A DNA stretch of 62,771 nucleotides, filler included, from Globobulimina sp. (lineage: Eukaryota), in assembly GCA_003354225.1 (NCBI GenBank). It is 43 parts of 43 records of this genome, joined end to end, with 100 filler letters (N's around TTAATTAATTAA, not from the genome) between each part and the next. Parts side by side here need not be neighbours in the genome. Positions count along the whole stretch, not along the records: positions 32,182 to 33,543 come from PIVH01017935.1; 42 more parts are not named here. The stretch is one strand, 5' to 3'. A program made the position numbers and the translations under genes. Under the pieces are notes generated by a model, which made no database searches, was not told the DNA's origin, and saw only the letters and a program-made list of their open reading frames with translations. This document shows positions 4,562 through 62,690 of the stretch, piece by piece; position 1 is the first letter of the stretch, and every line of letters begins with the position of its first letter.

Positions 4562-5379
4562 TCATAACAATTGATGATCACCAAAATTCTGCACAGCCAT
4601 ATCAAGGACCTGCACAGTGCCTTTTCCCTTTGTCGTTTTGCTGACTAAATCGCAGATTTTCCTATATTTGCCTGGATCAATATAGACCGTTAACTGATAG
4701 TTCATTCCAAACAATTCCTTTTCAATATTTATAACCAAGCCTTGTAACTCAGGTTTTATTTTTTTCCCAATATTTTTTGGTATATCAATTTTCAACTTCA
4801 TCTGAGCCCTTTCAATCTGCATTCCATTGTCTTGTAACACCACAATTAATTCCACCGCCTGTACTTTGGAGGATTTATTCATTTTTATATTAAAATGTAA
4901 CTCTTTCATTGCATTTTCAATCACAGAAACTGGAAACGGTTTTTTTGTTTCGCAATTCACGCATTTATCACATATTATACTGGCAACTTCTTTGAATTTG
5001 GCTTCCAATCCATCCTTCCTCTCCTTTTTAGAAACTTGGAGCTGTCCCTTTTCTAAAATTATTTTGCAAATTGCGGTCTCGTCGGTGGTCTTAAAGGCTT
5101 GTTTTAAGTCCTTTGCTGGCGCTGAAATTCCACGTTGGACATTTTTGAAAATAGTCTCCGTCTGCAATACCTCGGAAATGTCTTCTTCGATTCCTTTGCG
5201 CCAACTTAATACTTTATTTTTGTAGCAGGCTATCTCGAATCTTTTGTTACAAATTAAAGTGTTTGTTATTTTGATGAATGTGATAAAGAAACACACCGTT
5301 TGTTTTTGTATTTGTATCGAACGACAGCTACGTTTGTCAAAGGCTTTTGTGTTTGAGGTTGTTTTATTGGTGCTGCCAT
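4562..5379 (-). CDS. SBDS: Ribosome maturation factor SBDS/Sdo1, two exons
   Basis: MAAPIKQPQTQKPLTNVAVVRYKYKNKR|FEIACYKNKVLSWR, joined across a GT-AG intron at 5296..5241. Also ILEKGQLQVS and ERAQMKL. Confidence 0.95.
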
Positions 5380-5546
5380 TTTTGAGTATTGCGGTTAAAC
5401 TCCACAAATAAATCAAAAGAATACACGTTAGCTGTAAATTGATATGGTTGCTTACGGTTCGTCTATTATTTAAATGAATGTATTAAAACGAAATGTGAGT
5501 TTTTTTACTTGAAAAGTTTGTATTTTAAACTTTACTAAACAAAACA

Positions 5547-7371: not shown

Positions 7372-8535
7372 GCTCCTGTGAGTCCTGTCGACTGTACTAT
7401 CTGTCAACACAGTTATTATGATGGATGTAATACGTGTTCCTGCGACGCGCGAGGTTCACCATCCTGTACAGATATTAGTTGTTATACACTCGGTGATCCA
7501 TATTGCATCGAACCAACGTTAACCACAACAACAACACGTTTGTAAAAAACAATATATACAACAAAAAAGTACGCAAAATCACACAATACAATTTTCCAAC
7601 AACAAATAGCAAGCGCCACTTATGACTGTGGTAATTGCAACACGTATTATGATGGATGCAATGAGTGTTCGTGTGGTGAGAGAGGAATCGCAGTCTGCAC
7701 ATTAATGTATTGTCCAGCTGAAGAAATGGGGGCTGCGGTTTGCCATGAATGTAAAGCAGGATCCATTAAAAAGGATGGTGACTGTGTAAGTATTGACTGT
7801 CTTAGTTGTCAGTCATACAATGATGGCTGTAATGATTGTAGCTGTGGTGAGGGCTCTGTATTAGCGACATCACCGACATGTACAGAAAAATATTGTTTTG
7901 CCGAAGGTGTAGCGTCTTGTACAACCTGTGTGGATGGCTATAATTTAGATTTTTATGGTGGTGAATGTGTGAGTTGTGAGCCTGTAAATTGTTTTGTGTC
8001 GCCCTGTGCAGTAACGAGTGCAACCTGTTCCTATCCAGGTGCTGTATGTATGGATGATTATTCATGTGGTTGTGATTTTTATTTTGCCGATGGACATGGC
8101 ACTGCATTGACTGCAGAACAGTGCACTGCTACAACTGCAGAACCTGTGAGTACAGCACAAACAGCTGCGGGTGGTACGGGTATAACAAGTGTGGGAGATA
8201 TTGGCTGTGATACATGTGATGGACTGTATTATGATGGATGCAATCATTGTGTTTGTGACGAGCGGGGATTGCCAGTATGTACAGAGAGGGCATGCTTTGT
8301 TATGGGAGAAGCATTTTGCACGTATGATTGTAGTAATTGTCAAGCATATTATGATGGATGTAATGATTGTGAGTGTGATGGGAATGGTGCAGTAAGTTGT
8401 ACTGAAATGGCTTGTGATGGAAATGAAGCAACAACGCCGTATTGCGATGTGTTTCACTCAGTGGGAGAAGCAAATAAATTTGGAACAGTGGTGGGGATTT
8501 TATGTGGTGTTACAATAATGTTATCTTTCATATAA
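7372..8535 (+). CDS. Cys-rich surface protein with five pacifastin-like repeats and a GPI-signal-like C-terminus, 5' truncated, spliced
   Basis: Five copies of Y[YN]DGCNxCxC..CTxxxC. Hydrophobic C-terminus with no cytoplasmic tail. Confidence 0.75.
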
Positions 8536-23777: not shown

Positions 23778-24771
23778 ATGGAGGATGTAGCACCTCATAT
23801 TATAATTGACAATGGCTCTGGATTTACGAAAGCCGGCTTGTCTATAGATAATGTTCCCAGCGTCGTAATGCCGACAGTCACTGGTCACGGGGTATGTTTA
23901 CCTACATTTATGTACAGTATATACCCAAAGCAAACTGTCTATTCGTTAAATATAGGGACAAAAATGGCTATATATTGGCGATGAAGCACTTGAAACGCAT
24001 TTTTTAACACTCAGATATCCCATGGAGTATGGCATTGTCACCAATTGGGATGATCTGGTATGTAATATTTCTGCTATACATCCTCGTATATATTCATATA
24101 TTATAATCAACAGCAATACGTATGGGATCACATATTTTATAAGGAGTTAGGAGTGGCTCCAGAAGAGCATAATGTATTAACAACTGACGCCCCATCGACG
24201 CCTAAAGCGCACAGAGAGCGAATGACACAAATAATGTTTGAGAGCTTCAATGTACCAAACTATTATGTTGCTATGCAATCTGTGTTATCTCTATACGCAT
24301 CTGGTAAGACTACGGGCATTGTATTAGATTCTGGCAAAACTGCAACTTACACAGTACCCATTTATGAAGGATATGCGTTTCCGCATGGTATAGGCAGACA
24401 AGATTATGGAGGTCAAAATGTGACACAATATTTAAATACTTTGTTAATCAAAAAAGGTTATTCATTTCAAACGAGAGCAGAAAAAGAGATCGTTAATAAT
24501 ATGAAGGAGGAATTATGTTACATTGCAATGGATTATGAGAATGAATTAAGTGAATGTAAAAATAAACTCAATTCTAAATGTATTGAAAGGGAATTTGAGT
24601 TACCCGATGGACAAATTATAACTATCGATGAGGAGAGATTTATATGTATGGAAACATTATTCGATCCAGTCAACGCACTGCAAATTGCAGAAACGAAAGG
24701 CATTCATGGAATGATATATGATTCTATCATGAAATGTGATGTTGATTTAATTGAGGATTTGTTCAAAAATA
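23778..24771 (+). CDS. Divergent actin / actin-related protein, 3' truncated, two introns
   Basis: [71 protein letters not shown]. Introns at 23892..23955 and 24058..24113. Confidence 0.95.
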
Positions 24772-24871
24772 NNNNNNNNNNNNNNNNNNNNNNNNNNNNN
24801 NNNNNNNNNNNNNNNTTAATTAATTAANNNNNNNNNNNNNNNNNNNNNNNNNNNNNNNNNNNNNNNNNNNN

Positions 24872-27530: not shown

Positions 27531-27795
27531 TCTATATATATGATTTCATTTTTTATTTTTTTTTTATTTTTATTGCAAAATCGCATGTTGTTTTTGAGAC
27601 TGCTTTTAAACTAAGATAGCATATGCATATGTTACATAGATGTTTCGTATGTAAACCGCTATCGTAGTTTAAAAATCCAATCTCGGCTAGAAGTGNNNNN
27701 NNNNNNNNNNNNNNNNNNNNNNNNNNNNNNNNNNNNNNNTTAATTAATTAANNNNNNNNNNNNNNNNNNNNNNNNNNNNNNNNNNNNNNNNNNNN

Positions 27796-29157
27796 GTTTA
27801 TAGCGTATAATAAATGTATGATGAGATTGGAAATCCCATTCATTCTCTTCCTTTTCCTCAACATTTAATTCATTTGTATCATATTTACTCACTTTAAACA
27901 ATTTCGTCGGTATTAATATATCTGCCAATGGTTTCACAATTTCTTTAATAAAATAGCTCCATGCTTTTGTCATTCCAATCGAATTCAATCCCAAACCATA
28001 ACTGTTCATTGAATTTGGTCGAATAATTGGAACTAATCCAGAATTCTTCGCATATAGTGATGGTTTAATATAATTTTCCGATTCTTCCAATAATTTGTCA
28101 CATACCTCCTGAGTGAAAACACCTAATACATACACACCGCCGATCGGATTTATAATGAAATTGCTCGGATCCTTACTGTATTTATCAATAATTTTCAACT
28201 TGATATCAATATCAGTATTCTCCTTCAATTCTTTTACAAATTTTAATAATGTTTTATCTAATAACTCCAATGGAAAATACTCCTTTTCTGTTTGAAAAAA
28301 TAACTCTGAATATTTAGGTTTATAATTTTTGGTAATATTCATTTGTTGTTGTTTCTCTTTATTATCTTTATCCGTTTTAATGCGTTGTCTTATCTTTAAA
28401 TGATAATTTCTTTTCATTTGCTTCCTTTCAGATTCATTTGGTATATTATCATTTAATGATTTTAATATTCCAACTGTTTCTGTATTATTTCGGATAAAAT
28501 CATTTAACAATCCAAGCATTTCGGATTTATTATGCATTCTGGCGGTGTCCATTGCAGTCATTCCATTAAAATCTTTTTTGCATAATATATCAATCATTTT
28601 CGTAGAATGATATTGCTTCATATAATTTAATATTAATTTACAACATTCAGTTGAATCTGTTTCAGCCGCTTGATGTAATATGGTTTTCCCGCCACAAATA
28701 TATATCGGAAAACCTTTTTTGTTTGTTCCAGACGTAAAAAACAATTGCGCTAAAATAGAAATTACAAATTACAAATTACAAACCAGTGGCATGGATTGCA
28801 CAATCTTTGCTGATTAAATCCAATCTGGGTTTAAATTCTAATAACTTTGCTACACATTCATTGCTCCATTGATTAACACTGTAAAATAACGGTGAATAAC
28901 CATCAATATCTACCTCATTTATATTTATATGATATTTGCGGATTAATACTTCAATCAATTCATCACACTCATTAATGCACGCACAATGTAATAAATTCAT
29001 TGCTCGCTTATCACGCACATCTTTGAGAAAATCGTTTCCTTTTTCTTTAATTATATCAATATTATCAAATAAATATTTCTCAAAATTGACACTGCTCTTT
29101 GTCGCTTCAAATGGGAATTCGTCTTTCTTACAGGCAAAATCTTTAGTTTCTGTCTCT
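27796..29157 (-). CDS. Ankyrin repeats fused to an OGFOD2/ICU11-like 2OG-Fe(II) oxygenase, partial
   Basis: Ankyrin: LLHCAC, DGYSPLFYSV, GKTILHQAA, GMTAMDTA. Oxygenase: RPNSMNSYGL, SHHTFIIRYK. A 34-nt intron at 28783..28750 joins the ORFs. Confidence 0.8.
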
Positions 29158-30323: not shown

Positions 30324-32181
30324 TTCAGCCGACTGATTGCCTAAATATTTTGTTATATGTTATACGAGTTATATCCACATATATAACTCTCTCATTTTGT
30401 CTTTTTTGAACCGTAAACTCAAATCAGTATTATTGTAAAAAATATATGTTTACGCACCATATGTTTAACAAGTGCATAAAATATTTAATTTGCATATCAT
30501 AACAAATTATACATATACCTGACTTTTATGATGTTAAATTATCTTTTCGCAACGCATTTGCGGTATTATTGAGAGTGGTTGTGGTGTTAACTGCAGATGA
30601 AGGTAAAATGTTGGTCGGTNNNNNNNNNNNNNNNNNNNNNNNNNNNNNNNNNNNNNNNNNNNNTTAATTAATTAANNNNNNNNNNNNNNNNNNNNNNNNN
30701 NNNNNNNNNNNNNNNNNNNAGCTGTTTGGCAGTGTCATCTATTCGGAGTGGCAAATTATACACAGTTTGTGGCTTCAGAGCTATTTCAGTGTGGCATATA
30801 GCAACAGTTTGGCCGTCAGATCTATCTCAGAAACGGTTTTGCATTCAGACTCATTTCGGAGTGGCAAATATAAACAGTGTGGCATTCAAATGTACGAAGG
30901 ACTTTTGTTTTGGTGCAAGGATTGGAGTGTAAAGGAAAAGAACCTATAAAAACGCCGTCGTTTTTATGGGTTGCAAGCAAGTTTTGTTTGAAAAAATGTG
31001 GAAAACCAAGGATGTACGAAACAAACCGCTGTACATACTTTGTCATGTATTGTAGCTGTGGATCGCGCTGGTTTTGCCGTCGTAGACGCCGCAAAAGAGA
31101 CATTTTTCTTGGTTTATATTTGGTTCGTTGGTTTGCGTTCCGTTTTCGTGTTGATCCAGCTTCAAATACTCCGTCGTTGGCAATATTCATCACAACACCA
31201 TAGCCATCACGCTCTAACAAGTTATTTGAGGATGGTTTGCTACGTAAACATAAACGACTGTGTTTGCAACCATGTTTGTCTGGTCATTTGTATCGGGTTC
31301 ATCATGGGTTTGTGTTGGGTTCGTGGGATATTTGCATCGTTCGTTGTGTTTCTAACGTTGCTGTCCATCTTGTGTTGGATCACCGGATCGCAAAGATGTG
31401 CTCGATGCTAGTTTCTATGCCCCAACAATATGTAGGTCAGGACGTGATACAATTATCTGTTCTGGGATAGCCATGCGCGTATTGGATTTTTTGTTGATAA
31501 TGGATGTGTCAGATCAATCATACGGTGTTGAATCAACACCAATCTGTGCAGTTTCTTTCCCACGTATTATTTTAACTGTAATGAGATCAATATCGTTACT
31601 GGCAGCCATATGGCTGACTGTCGTATGAATGTACTGTGTGTTTGTAAAGGATAAAGGTAATAGAACAAAGGGTGTGTGTTATGTTAAAGGTATATAATTT
31701 GTAGGGATATAAATAGGATTAGTTTGTTTTGCTTTTTCCTTCGTGAAGGCATTATGGTATGCAAAGGAAGTAAGAAGAAGATTTTCAAAGTCTGATGAAA
31801 GCTACTTCGAAGCTAGTAAACTAAAGATAGAAAACAGATTATTCGTTCTCGCCGCAATAACCTTGTAAGTCTGCAGGTATTCGACTGACTGCAATTATTG
31901 CTACTTCAAGAACTCAAGGTTTTCAAGAATAAATAATTCAATTTAATAAATAAATAATAAAGAAAAACAAATATATAGTTTGTTAACGTTCTTCACGTTT
32001 GCAGGTAATGTCGGTAGGATCCAAACCAAAGACTAAGATATATATTATCAAAAGTTTATAATTACCGGTTATTAATTCAACNNNNNNNNNNNNNNNNNNN
32101 NNNNNNNNNNNNNNNNNNNNNNNNNTTAATTAATTAANNNNNNNNNNNNNNNNNNNNNNNNNNNNNNNNNNNNNNNNNNNN

Positions 32182-33543
32182 AATTTCACAAAACAAACCC
32201 AAAAAAAAGTACCAATAAACTCAGCCATATATTTGGATATAGGCGTACTTCGACGGTCCTCATCCTTCCACAAATACCTTATAAACAAACCAGCAGCAAC
32301 ACCGGCTAACATCTCACTACATACATAAACCCAAAAATATTCAAATTTGATACTGTGTAACGTATCAGTAACACACGCGGCACTCATTATTGTCCCAAAC
32401 CAAACAGCCGGATTTAAACAGCAACCACTCACTGTATCTAATGACCCAATGGCGCCAATTGCCGACATTACCGTCCATCCAACACTTATCCCGCTGCTGT
32501 TACACGGAATGCCATTGCCCGGATTGGTTAACGTTACATTAACGATCGTTAAACAAACCAATAAAAAGGTAAACATAAATTCTGCGCCAAAAACCTGATA
32601 ATTCTCTTTTTCGATCCGAATGTGCGGATATATGTCGCCTGCATTGTCCCCACCGACTCCCCATGCCATTAAACCACCGGTAAAGCCGCCTAATAATTGA
32701 AGGAGAATATACATGCCTATATTTACGTAATCGTCCAATTCAAAGCCGTCAATATCAGCATGCAGCCATACACCGATAGTTATTGCCGGGTTAAAATGCG
32801 CTTGCGATATATAACCCCATTGATAAACAAGTGCAATTAATCCAAATGCTACGCCGAGTGAGGCGGTGATTGTTGGCGTAAACCCATTGTCCGCGCCGTT
32901 GTCATACGATGCTGAGACGAGTTTGATAATAAATACAAGGTATGCCGTGCCAACAAATTCTGCAACATACCGTCTTAAAACAGATATGAATGTATAACAT
33001 TTCTCAGTTATTAAATGGTGGAGTTTCATTCAAGTAAATCTGCTCAGAAACGTTTCTCAAAAGATTTACTTGAATGCAACTCCGTCATTTTAAAATTGCA
33101 TTTCATATATACCTTAATTGATGTTTAGTTTTTTCGCCAGCATAAGCTATCTCAGATTCTAAATCATAATCTTGATATAAATATTTATACAATACGCCTG
33201 AAAGTACGGCACCAACCACTGGCCCAACCATATAAATCCACAGATGATCCCACTGCAACTCGCTCCATTCAGTGCCAGCAGCCAACGCAGACGCTGTCGT
33301 TCCAAACCACACCGCAAAATTCAAACAAGCACCGGATATCCCATTAATGCCAACCGCACAAACTGCAGCGCCCAGAGCTGAGCCAATGGCTAAACCATAA
33401 AACGCATTTTTTTTAATCGCACTGGTCGCAGTGTGCAACACTGTATTTACTAAAAAAAATGTAAAGGCAACCTCTCCACAAAATGCCTGGGTCACTGTAA
33501 AAGTGTCCTTATTGTAACGCATACGAATTTGCCCAATGTCTTC
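32182..33543 (-). CDS. Multi-domain aquaporin: at least three tandem MIP units in one spliced reading frame, truncated at both ends
   Basis: Unit A C-half (SGACLNFA). Intron 33112..32974. Full unit B (YVAEFVGT, AHFNPA, CCLNPA). Unit C start (KYMAEFIGTF) follows with no stop. Confidence 0.85.
33013..33090. repeat. Fold-back inverted repeat within the aquaporin intron
   Basis: GGAGTTTCATTCAAGTAAATCT pairs with AGATTTACTTGAATGCAACTCC (21/22), around a central palindrome AGAAACGTTTCT. Confidence 0.85.
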
Positions 33544-33664
33544 NNNNNNNNNNNNNNNNNNNNNNNNNNNNNNNNNNNNNNNNNNNNTTAATTAATTAAN
33601 NNNNNNNNNNNNNNNNNNNNNNNNNNNNNNNNNNNNNNNNNNNTTTTTTTTTTCATCCGGGTGA

Positions 33665-35105: not shown

Positions 35106-36467
35106 TCTTACTCAAAAAACATTTCGTTTTTTTTTGTTTGAAAGCCTGGTGCTGTTTTATAATCTGGCCAGTGAGGAACAAATAGATGCTTTGATGAACC
35201 ATATGTTTGCTGGCAACAGATCGAGTTTATTAGAATCATTATCTGTGTTATTAGCACTGTTGCATCATTATCCCAATGTATCTGCAGAAAAACAGCAATT
35301 TGGTAACAGCAATTAGGTGATGATAATTTTGATATTTCAGGTGCTTATGAAGTTAAAACAGGACAGAATATCGATGAACTTATCGATAAACAATATAACC
35401 CCATAAATGGAGAGGATATTTTCATTGCGATTAGTGATTTTAGTGGTACTTTTATGGAAGACGTACTGATAAATGGTAATGAAAATTTGCAGAGGAATTT
35501 TGATATAGAAAATCCTCTACAAAATGAAGAGTATTGTTCCTTCCCTTTTTAATATAATTATAAATAGTGATTTTTTCTCAGTTTGTATACCCCTGGCAGA
35601 TTTTTTGTATATATATATATGATTTGATCAATTACAAATAACTTTTTTGGCTTAGTTTCATTTCATTTCAACGATTGGCAAGGTTTTTGGGTTAGCAACT
35701 AGGAATACTAGGATTACTACATTACTAGGTCATCGAATACTAGGTCAACTAGGGTTGAGCACACTAACTCTGTCGTCATTTTGCTTGCTTTGTTTGTTTG
35801 GTATTGTGTGTGTATTGTATCAATCAGACAGATCCTAAAAGGAAAGACTTCAATTCCTCGATTTGGCAAAGTTAGATTCATCGGCAATAATCGGTTTGAA
35901 AAGTCAAGCGATAACAATCATCAATCCATACACAACAACCATATATTCCATGATTCAATAATCAATTATTGTTCCATAAAAATCATATGATAATTCCATA
36001 AAAATCCAGTTTGAAATCATATGATAATTCCATTTTGCATGATTTTGCGTTACAGTTTGAAACTGAAACATTTTTTTCTGATTTAGTTGGTAATCGCACT
36101 CGGTTGGGATCCAGCAATCGAAGAATTAAAGGAATTGGATGAAGTGGCGGATTGGATGTACAAAGAAGAGTTAGTGCCCAAATTAATAGCTACATTGTCG
36201 CCGACCCATACACCCGATGAGCATTCTGCCGCATCATACACTTTAGTCGATATCGTGGCAAAAACATCTCGTTCTACAAAGTTAAGTACACACACACTTC
36301 TCACGATGACATGTTTAAAAAAGGTTTTTTTCAACTTAAACTTCAAAGTCTTACTCAAAAAACATTTCGTTTTTTTTTGTTTGAAAGCCTGGTGCTGTTT
36401 TATAATCTGGCCAGTGAGGAACAAATAGATGCTTTGATGAACCATATGTTTGCTGGCAACAGATCGA
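35106..36467 (+). repeat. Contig with 119-bp identical terminal direct repeats (circular or tandem unit of 1243 bp)
   Basis: 35106-35224 is identical to 36349-36467. Confidence 0.92.
36087..36290 (+). pseudogene. SAPS/PP6R (SIT4 phosphatase-associated) gene fragment, continuing through the repeat into 35106-35420
   Basis: WMYKEELVPKLIATLSPTHTPDEHSAASYTLVDIV resembles the SAPS domain. The next exon (LVLFYNLASEEQIDALMNHMF..SLSVLLALL) lies at the contig start and meets a stop. Confidence 0.65.
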
Positions 36468-51183: not shown

Positions 51184-51363
51184 TATGATGCATCCAGTTA
51201 CTTCAAATCCTGGATTATACTTACCCAAATCCTGAACAGAGCGTCTGTCTGTATTTACAAATTCAAATTTTGCTTGCTTGCGTCCACCTTCATGTATACT
51301 TTTTGATACATGAAAAGTAACGCCACGAAAACTCGCGGCATGCAGATTATCTAATAATGACAT
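51184..51363 (-). CDS. Mu-like phage DNA-circularisation N-terminal domain (tail/baseplate) protein, partial
   Basis: LHAASFRGVTFHV..GGRK..EF..VQDLG. TAATG stop/start overlap with the tape measure gene and a GGAGG Shine-Dalgarno. Confidence 0.88.
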
Positions 51364-52544
51364 TATCTTCCTCCCATAGATACACCAAGGTTCGTATCTC
51401 CATAGCCACCTTGTTTTGTTTTGATACTTTGAACTGTTCGCTCAGGTGCATTCAGCGTCATGTTAATATCAACAGATGAACGTGTTGATAGCTCAGAAGC
51501 TGCCATCGGTTGTGTTCCATAAGAGAAGTTATTTGCAGCAGGTCTACCATATCCACTGAATTGCGTACGGTTCATTTGAGCAGGAGTGGCAGGTGTATTA
51601 ATTGTAAATGTCATTGCATCGACAATAGCATTTTTTATTTCAATAAACTTGTCAACATAACCTGATATGATTGAAAACGCTTCTTTGAATGGTGCAGTCA
51701 TAGCATTGACTATTCCACTGAAATTACCACTTAGGGCGGCACTGAGTACAGCTGCTGCAGAAATTATTGGAGAAAATATTACTTTAGCCAGGTTAGATAC
51801 AGCAGTTTTAACTAGTGTAGCCAATGCAGTAAACTTCTCGGCTATATATGCATTTGTCTCGTTAACAAATGTGCGTACTTGAGACAGCAATCTATCCCAG
51901 TGTTTAACAAGATAAAGACCTGCAGCAACTAGTCCGCCTATTGCAGCAACAACTAATCCCGCAGGACTGATTAAGAACGCAAATGCCGCCGCCAATATGC
52001 CTATAGCAGTGGACGCGAGTGTTGCGACAAAACCTAAAGCACCAATGATAATAAGCATCGGAGGTATAATGGCAAGTATTCCTAAGAACAGGAATGTCAG
52101 TCTTGCAAGCTTAGGATTATTTAATACAAATTTATCCATTGCAGATTTTGCACCACCGAGGAAGTCAATGAATTTTTGCATCTTAGCTTTGATACTGAAC
52201 ATTCTATCCATGTGCATAAATACAGCCGCTGATGCAATGAACAATTTATCTTTTATGTTTGATAGTAAGCCACCTAATGTTCTAGATATGAGGTCCATAT
52301 TGTTTAGATATTTCTCAGCATGAATTTGACGCATTGCTTTATCAAAAATTTCAAATGGTATCTTACCTTTAGATGCAAGTTTCTGGAATGCAGCAACTGT
52401 CATCTTAGTACCTTTTGCCAAGGTAACTAGTAATGGCAAACCGCGCTCAGAGAACTGCATGATTTCTTCGTTGAGTAGTTTTTGTTTTGCTCGAACTTGA
52501 CCATATACAAATGCTAAATCTTTAATCGGTTTACCAGTACCCGC
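51363..52544 (-). CDS. Phage tail tape measure protein, 5' truncated
   Basis: KDLAFVYGQVRAKQKLLNEEIMQFSERGLPL..SRTLGGLLSNIKD, Ala/Gly-rich hydrophobic middle, LVKHWD. No introns. Confidence 0.92.
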   Translation of the reverse strand, partial: AGTGKPIKDLAFVYGQVRAKQKLLNEEIMQFSERGLPLLVTLAKGTKMTVAAFQKLASKGKIPFEIFDKAMRQIHAEKYLNNMDLISRTLGGLLSNIKDKLFIASAAVFMHMDRMFSIKAKMQKFIDFLGGAKSAMDKFVLNNPKLARLTFLFLGILAIIPPMLIIIGALGFVATLASTAIGILAAAFAFLISPAGLVVAAIGGLVAAGLYLVKHWDRLLSQVRTFVNETNAYIAEKFTALATLVKTAVSNLAKVIFSPIISAAAVLSAALSGNFSGIVNAMTAPFKEAFSIISGYVDKFIEIKNAIVDAMTFTINTPATPAQMNRTQFSGYGRPAANNFSYGTQPMAASELSTRSSVDINMTLNAPERTVQSIKTKQGGYGDTNLGVSMGGR

Positions 52545-52644
52545 NNNNNNNNNNNNNNNNNNNNNNNNNNNNNNNNNNNNNNNNNNNNTTAATTAATTAA
52601 NNNNNNNNNNNNNNNNNNNNNNNNNNNNNNNNNNNNNNNNNNNN

Positions 52645-61857: not shown

Positions 61858-62690
61858 TTATACTTTGCCCATATGACAGAATGCAGTGTTATGTCCCAAA
61901 TCATTTGCAGCAACTACCATTTTATTAAATTCATCAGGGCGATTTAAGGAGAATTCAGCAGGATCCTGGGCCCAACACACAAATAATGCTTTAATATACG
62001 ATGATAATACTTGACAGGTACCAACATAAATTAAACAGCCTAATCCCGTGGCCATTTTAACATGCTCTATGTCAATAACTTGAGCACCAGCACTGGCAGT
62101 AATACTTGACACAATGGCAACAATAAGCACACAAAATATACCCCCAACAATAATTGGATAACCACTTAAATCATCGTTGATTATTGTTTTAACACCAGTA
62201 CGCTTAAATAATTCAAATGTGTCTTTGCCAGATTGAATATAGGTTTTGCCGTACACTGCAATTTGTACATAAACATAACTATTAAAATATTCCAGGATAT
62301 CACCTAAAATACGTAAAATACATTGAAAACACCCAAATAATATCGCTAGACCATAGTTACGATCTGCTTTTGCATTATTTTTTGCCATAAATGTAAGCCA
62401 TCGTAATGCGCGAATAATTGCTGTTAATAAGGAACCAAAACAAATTGATCCAAATGAAGTTGTTATTGCTCGTTTAAATGCACCTAAAGTAACACCACTT
62501 GTATCTTGACCAAAGAACCATGCTGCCATTACACCACAGGCTGCGGCATGAGCCACATTTAATGCTACCGTTACATGCCAGCATAATGACACTAACCATA
62601 CAAAGTATAAACCAAATTTTGCTTCATCAATCACAGCAGAATGGAAGATCCACAGTGCCGCAAATGCGTCGATAACAACCAAAACAATCT
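61858..62690 (-). CDS. Choline transporter-like (SLC44/Pns1) protein, last exon
   Basis: AFKRAITTSFGSICFGSL, YFNSYVYVQIAVYGKTY, IINDDL, LFVCWAQDP. Confidence 0.93.

Follow-up and report, generated by a model that had tools for sequence, protein, structure and literature searches.

The window, i.e., the whole stretch of 62,771 nucleotides of Globobulimina sp. that was analysed, consists of short contigs strung together with N/TTAATTAATTAA/N spacers. One whole contig (32182-33543; 1362 bp), flanked by artificial, non-biological spacers in the window layout (32082..32181 and 33544..33643), carries two reading frames of the MIP/aquaporin superfamily on its minus strand. Against the Pfam model PF00230, with its curated cut-off of 25 bits, the frame before an intron matched positions 122-222 with 56.4 bits, and the one after it positions 5-220 with 95.9 bits. 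The units are numbered here after P0003, an ortholog with four MIP units. The first exon piece (33113..33543, minus strand), which is open at the contig end and aligns to P0003 from residue 367, codes for unit 2 from loop C to helix 6, followed by most of an acidic linker 2. The second NPA box of this unit (33310..33321, minus strand) reads N-F-A and is followed by Val at the position of the filter Arg; its Pro is replaced by L, F, or G in five of five orthologous unit-2 sequences. Downstream of the intron, unit 3 is complete (32268..32972, minus strand), with six helices and two re-entrant loops, and, on trimmed columns, shares 81% identity with the corresponding unit of P0003. Its first NPA box (32784..32792, minus strand) lies in the motif SQAHFNPA, with Gln for the usual Gly in all four orthologous sequences covering the site, and its second (32403..32414, minus strand) reads NPAV, Val replacing the filter Arg according to the alignment and the filter readout. 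The frame continues without a stop through linker 3 (32220..32273, minus strand), which measures 18 residues from the end of helix 6 to the helix-1 Glu of unit 4, as it does in five of five orthologous sequences and two of two paralogs. It ends in ISKYMAEFIGTFF, the first 19 residues of helix 1 of unit 4 (32184..32240, minus strand; placed by alignment to P0003), which is cut by the contig end. Compared with the helix-1 starts of the four units of the ortholog, this tail gave scores of 51-64, and no more than 24 elsewhere, indicating that it is the start of a new MIP unit. The first-pass annotation had likewise read a complete NPA/NPA middle unit running without a stop into a further one. It had counted at least three units; what the contig itself contains is one complete unit, preceded by half a unit (with box NFA instead of NPA) and followed by the first 19 residues of another.

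Other contigs of the window carry ordinary eukaryotic genes, encoding a protein with ankyrin and an OGFOD2-like oxygenase (27740-28768), an actin family member (24066-24827), SBDS (4562-5482), and a choline transporter-like protein (61858-62688). In addition, an ORF at 7546-8535 contains three pacifastin inhibitor repeats (PF05375), and an ORF at 51363-52592 contains a phage tape-measure domain (PF20155, 43.7 bits), the latter probably representing a phage or bacterial contig in the eukaryotic assembly. A short stretch (KHMVHQSIYLF...) is shared by the ends of two contigs (35107-35230 and approximately 36280-36465), reflecting either a repeat or an assembly overlap.

The two MIP frames are joined by a phase-2 GT-AG intron of 139 nt within linker 2 (33112..32974, minus strand). 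When every GT at contig offsets 380-444 was combined with every downstream AG up to offset 619, this was the single pair that gave a stop-free frame across the contig, joining EKTKHQLR to RYVAEFVGT and resulting in a spliced frame of 407 residues. The joint was also found in sequencing runs. Seven of nine listed runs had the stretch or part of it; in all four chosen for examination (X1, X2, X6, and X7; three studies, at most three samples), contigs skipped exactly positions 32974-33112 (CT..AC on the plus strand), and read depth was zero in both bins lying wholly inside the intron. None of the nine runs was recorded as RNA, X6 and X7 being guessed to be RNA; the runs with the joint represent either spliced RNA or intron-free DNA, and both readings join the units in frame. 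The junction proposed in the first-pass annotation was thus confirmed, the TGA ending at 33103, at which a shorter protein might have terminated, lying in the skipped intron. A separate start at an ATG inside the intron (MKLHHL...) was ruled out, since this stretch is skipped in all four runs. The longest piece of X1 differed from the window at three of 792 bases. At window position 32226, all four runs read A for C, changing Met into Ile in helix 1 of unit 4, which reflects either sequence variation or a mistake in the window. Record 8 of X2 (1534 nt), a related sequence, covered on one contig the region between unit 2 and a point 112 nt outside the window contig, beyond whose end the run contigs extended by 112-357 nt. 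Over the 5' end, run contigs extended 1015-1106 nt; the 366 upstream residues of P0003 need 1098 nt. Loose ends of run contigs, when translated, read LFVYGIGG and GLFAYGIGG, corresponding to helix 3 of the ortholog's unit 2, as well as QLIGNISGA and AMCVDG, corresponding to loop E of unit 4. This indicates that unit 4 is present in the same runs on a separate contig; no contig of the four runs extended across the whole four-unit stretch.

A search for longer relatives returned P0003 (1023 amino acids), P0004 (718), P0005 (881), P0006 (1060), and P0007 (733) at the top. Two of these, P0003 and P0006, come from the foraminiferan Bolivina argentea (EukProt) and contain four Pfam MIP stretches each, and P0004, P0005, and P0007 are N-terminally cut forms. 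The spliced 407-residue frame was collinear with residues 367-769 of P0003, with 313 of 407 residues identical (77%) and no gap at the junction, so that the contig corresponds to the second half of unit 2, the whole of unit 3, and the start of unit 4. This level of identity suggests a foraminiferan, or a near relative of one, as the source of the gene. Linker 1 counts 18 residues in two of two orthologous sequences, linker 2 counts 28 in five of five (74% mean identity), and linker 3 is 62% identical over its five sequences. Junction 3-4 is in frame without splicing, and linker 2 is read through in one called ORF in P0004, P0005, and P0106. Furthermore, unit 1 (P0108), units 2-3 (P0106), and units 3-4 (P0105), each on a 13,485-nt ENA contig, appear to be one gene split by introns. 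Hence, the gene very probably encodes four units, its own units 1 and 4 being predicted from these relatives, and the earlier count of at least three is exceeded in the ortholog, for which the domain count per protein called for at that stage gave four. The canonical MIP architecture, with one unit per chain and a non-covalent tetramer, is replaced by four homologous repeats in one polypeptide, a layout resembling that of Nav/Cav channels. The acidic linker 2 (YQDYDL.SE..Y.GE; window 33113-33180) is conserved to the same degree as the units themselves and may act as a regulatory or sorting element. P0006 and P0007 represent a second four-unit paralog in B. argentea, 38% identical to the query unit, the foraminiferan family thus comprising at least two branches. 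P0118, an NCBI entry of 169 amino acids whose contig measures 740 nt, resembles a copy of the unit 2-3 region that has been broken or mis-spliced. A metagenome scan with P0003 gave 23 pattern matches and zero confirmed loci.

Each unit possesses two Asn-bearing NPA-type boxes and a Glu in both helices 1 and 4, as is typical of MIPs. All eight Asn are present in P0003, with the box variants NPC, NIA, NPS, and NLA. Unit 1 (NPC and N[I/L/P]A), unit 2 (NPS and N[L/F/G]A), and unit 3 (an SQAH motif, with loops D and E both lengthened) keep their peculiarities across orthologs, the unit-2 box variant being absent from the paralog P0006. Filter positions were assigned from their offsets to the two Asn, as in AQP1, AqpZ, and GlpF; an alignment with AqpM served to verify the Arg column, and the helix-5 position is less certain in units 2 and 3, owing to insertions. 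The ar/R filters of units 1 to 4 of P0003 read I/I/C/V, I/V/A/V, V/I/C/V, and I/V/A/V, that of unit 3 in the window being V/I/C/V. They differ by I/V and A/C swaps only, and the other pore-lining columns checked were almost constant. The filter Arg of AqpM aligns with Val. Among the 497 units of the set, this position was occupied by Arg in three and by Val in 387, indicating that the loss of Arg is a trait of a wider group and predates the fusion. Single-unit relatives likewise have an Arg-less filter of this type, along with NPA variants of a similar kind. In orthodox, water-specific aquaporins (AQP1, AqpZ, and PIP), the ar/R filter combines an aromatic residue, His, and Arg, and aquaglyceroporins (GlpF and AQP3) are marked by an aromatic filter wall and by NPARD following the second box. 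The present filter consists of I/V, I/V, A/C, and V, NPAVW stands in place of NPARD, and aquaglyceroporins were the weakest group among the PDB hits. The protein belongs to the MIP superfamily and is neither an orthodox aquaporin nor an aquaglyceroporin.

Filter residues predict the substrate poorly. In the accessible parts of PMC6937295 and PMC5436202, replacement of Arg by Val in AQP1 lets protons pass, the R195V form passes neither urea nor glycerol, and TgAQP displays water plus glycerol flux. By contrast, kinetoplastid AQPXs with comparable aliphatic filters are described as conducting water and glycerol poorly in the available part of PMC8355241. The most likely reading, with chances of about even, is that the foraminiferan protein would be a broad, leaky channel for water and uncharged small solutes, such as ammonia, and possibly for protons, instead of a strict water channel, as far as the residues at the filter can tell. 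The shared Arg-less filter type argues against four sharply different selectivities. The earlier suggestion of pores that have diverged in selectivity thus has four alike, aliphatic filters against it, and what speaks for it are the ortholog-conserved differences between the units in NPA boxes and loops. Of 17 foraminiferan units, 15 have a Lys that follows the helix-1 Glu at a distance of 12 residues (window 32927-32929 in unit 3 and 32184-32186 in unit 4), the same position being mostly Gly in other units (208 of 372). This Lys might compensate for the charge lost with the filter Arg, or play a role at an interface.

AlphaFold2 modelling of P0003, based on an alignment of 22 rows, gave a pLDDT of 81.5 and a pTM of 0.87 over 1023 residues. 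The model of this ortholog, not of the window piece, displays the hourglass fold with six membrane helices and two half helices per unit, and its unit 2 superimposed on AqpM (2evu) in a single-chain comparison with a Z-score of 30.1 and an rmsd of 1.7 over 222 residues. Approximately 9-11 residues separate each helix 6 from the next helix 1. Two of the three linkers were modelled confidently (pLDDT 78-86), the longer linker 2 having a pLDDT of 54-76. The four-unit protein P0150 of the dinoflagellate Biecheleria cincta yielded comparable values (pLDDT 83.7, pTM 0.86). The pTM of 0.87 suggests a defined arrangement among four equal domains, although AlphaFold knows aquaporin tetramers and may copy them. 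The gene would accordingly specify a protein of about 1020 residues, comprising 24 membrane helices and eight NPA-type boxes in four complete MIP units arranged head to tail. As both ends of a MIP unit are cytosolic, the short linkers would allow a packing of the four units about a pseudo-fourfold axis, giving an intramolecular tetramer of fixed order and 1:1:1:1 stoichiometry, in which every unit would act as a separate passive pore whose aliphatic filter contains neither Arg nor aromatic residues. The main gain of the fusion probably lies in the control of assembly, four paralogous subunits being locked into one heterotetramer; the locked order would allow interfaces, loops, and NPA boxes to specialise by position. 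Most likely, judging from the sequence and the model, the four MIP units stay together in one chain as an intact intramolecular tetramer, and the single-chain four-unit design envisaged in the first-pass annotation agrees with the four domains of the ortholog and the pTM of its whole chain.

To assess how widespread multi-unit chains are, a profile built from 33 hits of single-unit length was applied to 254 proteins, the frame of the window contig included, after removal of five duplicate or partial entries. Four full units were counted in 19 proteins, two in 157, one in 46, and five or more in none. The remainder comprised three full units plus a partial one (three proteins), three full units (three), two plus a partial one (three), one plus partial ones (17), and partial units only (six). 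These counts are biased towards long proteins, as two of the searches were limited to 462-2000 and 562-1791 residues, one search being without a length limit, and as whole-sequence scoring favours multi-unit chains. The three-unit cases P0200, P0146, P0004, P0005, and P0226 are cut at the N-terminus, leaving P0156 as the remaining one. Two-unit MIPs are thus very common in this set (among them P0009-P0104 and P0288-P0332), and several are named from dinoflagellates; some carry a C2 domain (PF00168; P0077, P0079, P0088, and P0251-P0253). The four-unit MIPs P0130, P0142, P0249, and P0250 have N-terminal extensions of 200-500 residues without a listed Pfam family. A search of the ESM Atlas returned generic MIP clusters only, with a low recognition score. 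Its top cluster has a representative of 946 amino acids and MIP in 99% of its 109 members, with Streptophyta as the commonest phylum (24 known), and could contain merged gene models or further multi-unit MIPs.

In a tree of 52 unit rows, from which four half-covered units were left out, units grouped by lineage and not by position. The foraminiferan units formed a group (support 97/88) inside a clade with single-unit MIPs (100/99), and the units of P0008 (99/91), of P0070 (100/96), and of P0150 with P0111 (100/99) were likewise supported. This indicates that four-unit chains arose several times in protists, unless gene conversion mimics such a pattern. Forcing all 41 multi-unit rows together versus the 11 single-unit rows was marginally rejected (p-AU 0.037); the repeated origin rests on the grouping by lineage and not on this test. 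The foraminiferan units lay apart from the dinoflagellate-type ones, in a tree without labelled SAR IX sequences, and each foraminiferan unit position formed its own starred clade. Units 1/3 and 2/4 pair clearly in dinoflagellate-type proteins. For the foraminiferan duplication order, units 1 and 3 grouped with a support of 86/49, the alternatives not being rejected (p-AU 0.20 and 0.45); site patterns were 9:6:1 and 7:1:6, and linkers 1 and 3 have the same length.

With respect to known systems, the single-unit MIPs, which form non-covalent tetramers, share the hourglass fold, the Glu of helices 1 and 4, and both Asn with the present protein, the best structural match being archaeal AqpM (2evu), with NIP2;1 (7cjs) and TIP2;1 (5i32) as further matches. 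In contrast, the present protein has four units per chain and misses the filter Arg. No MIP chain of more than 348 residues occurred among the 57 PDB sequence hits. The four-repeat Nav/Cav channels build one shared central pore, and TPC channels are two-repeat intermediates. They resemble the present case in that a tetrameric channel is made as one chain, two- and four-unit grades both being found among the MIP hits. However, their fold is unrelated, and each MIP unit would have its own pore, as the Asn pair kept in each suggests; the analogy drawn earlier therefore holds for the layout of the chain and probably fails for the pore. Fused tetramers have reportedly also been engineered from tobacco AQP1 and PIP2;1. 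An engineered four-fold GlpF fusion (WT4), with both termini cytosolic, is active according to the accessible part of PMC6412381. Such constructs share the head-to-tail covalent tetramer and the cytosolic junctions, activity being shown for the GlpF fusion, but are artificial and contain one or two subunit types, whereas four natural paralogous units with evolved linkers occur here. As described in the available portions of the sources, an aliphatic Arg-free filter is also present in kinetoplastid AQPX, TbAQP2 (IVLL), TgAQP and TIP1 (Val for Arg), and AQP11/12; all of these are single-unit proteins, TbAQP2 is an aquaglyceroporin, and the likeness noted here is one of the filter.

Multi-domain MIPs were flagged before in an Irisarri-type survey of 2024 (PMC11316224), of which the accessible part mentions 1,101 of 7,541 MIP sequences with two to nine hmmsearch hits, among which 624 multi-hit sequences in one clade with three or four NPA motifs (SAR IX, ochrophyte/dinophyte). 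Several of these hits are partial domains, and unrecognised multi-domain MIPs are considered likely to exist. As in the present case, more than one MIP domain per chain is found in uncharacterised proteins of SAR protists; in the accessible main text, by contrast, complete four-unit chains, a tetramer reading, and a multi-domain foraminiferan form are not mentioned, and the searchable part of its supplement has no Bolivina entry. The available portions of PMC3849724, PMC4203930, and PMC9799330 do not mention a multi-unit form. A natural four-unit aquaporin was not found described in the literature search, most subscription journals and the supplementary figures of PMC11316224 being outside its scope. 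The initial statement that no aquaporin with three or more fused units has been characterised thus survived this search, with the qualification that multi-domain MIP hits had already been noticed.

Alternatively, the single-chain tetramer may contain four pores with different substrates, or a unit 2 that has turned into a gated or structural element, which is compatible with the best explanation and can tentatively be envisaged. Orthologous units 2-4 are 55-82% identical, versus 39-49% for the units within one chain, the longest stem branch (1.11) is that of unit 2, and orthologs retain the unit-specific boxes of units 1 and 2 as well as, in unit 3, the SQAH motif and the extended loops. Against such a divergence of pores stand the nearly invariant filters and pore-lining columns, the occurrence of the same filter and similar NPA variants in single-unit relatives, and the lack of the unit-2 box in P0006. 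The chain could also remain whole while its units join the tetramers of different chains, forming cross-linked arrays or half-ring dimers, as the longer linker 2 with its low model confidence would permit. This is improbable, as pTM values of 0.86-0.87 in two lineages point to one intrachain arrangement and as unit counts of one, two, and four fit a fourfold stoichiometry.

Light-harvesting polyproteins of dinoflagellates and Euglena are chains that are cleaved after synthesis, and the basic pairs (RR and KK) in the linkers might suggest a similar processing into single, freely assembling aquaporins. Yet the three linkers have no spacer motif in common, each is short and constant in length, and two of the three are confidently modelled; moreover, basic residues before helix 1 are found in single-unit relatives too, and a stop at four units would not be expected of a polyprotein. 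Such cleavage is therefore unlikely. That adjacent single- or two-unit genes were merged through a wrong intron call or a chimeric assembly may be conceived because the contig is short, junction 1-2 is known from two orthologous proteins and the paralog P0006 only, and the cluster of P0150 also contains two-unit isoforms (509 and 515 amino acids); some of the non-foraminiferan four-unit entries could indeed be assembly chimeras. For the foraminiferan gene, an artefact is very improbable and is largely refuted for junctions 2-3 and 3-4, given the identical joint in three studies, the recurrence of these junctions, constant in length, in several diverged sequences of EukProt, Logan, and ENA, and the independence of junction 3-4 from splicing.

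An intact single-chain tetramer would bear on a standing question, namely why aquaporins assemble as tetramers although every monomer is equipped with a pore, which motivates the work with artificial fusions, as stated in the accessible part of PMC6412381. A natural chain of four different units in fixed order makes this question testable by pore and by interface, and offers an asymmetric particle for cryo-EM. Catalogues of protist MIPs that split or trim such proteins miss the whole architecture. As a cautious proposal, short of an even chance, natural single-chain aquaporin tetramers would represent an undescribed architecture that evolved several times in protists from Arg-less MIPs and stopped at four units, the ring positions having specialised in foraminifera. 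If so, the lineages concerned would be foraminifera, dinoflagellates, and at least two or three more, and the repeated counts of one, two, and four units would constitute a second case of the route from homotetramer to single chain that is known from voltage-gated channels. An aquaporin, which may or may not correspond to the present gene, is highly expressed during chamber formation in a foraminiferan, according to the available part of PMC10284544. Under the above proposal, one foraminiferan chain would form an asymmetric channel of fixed build, with four pores whose conductance or gating depends on their position, and might serve the transport of ammonia, protons, or gas in calcifying, low-oxygen cells.
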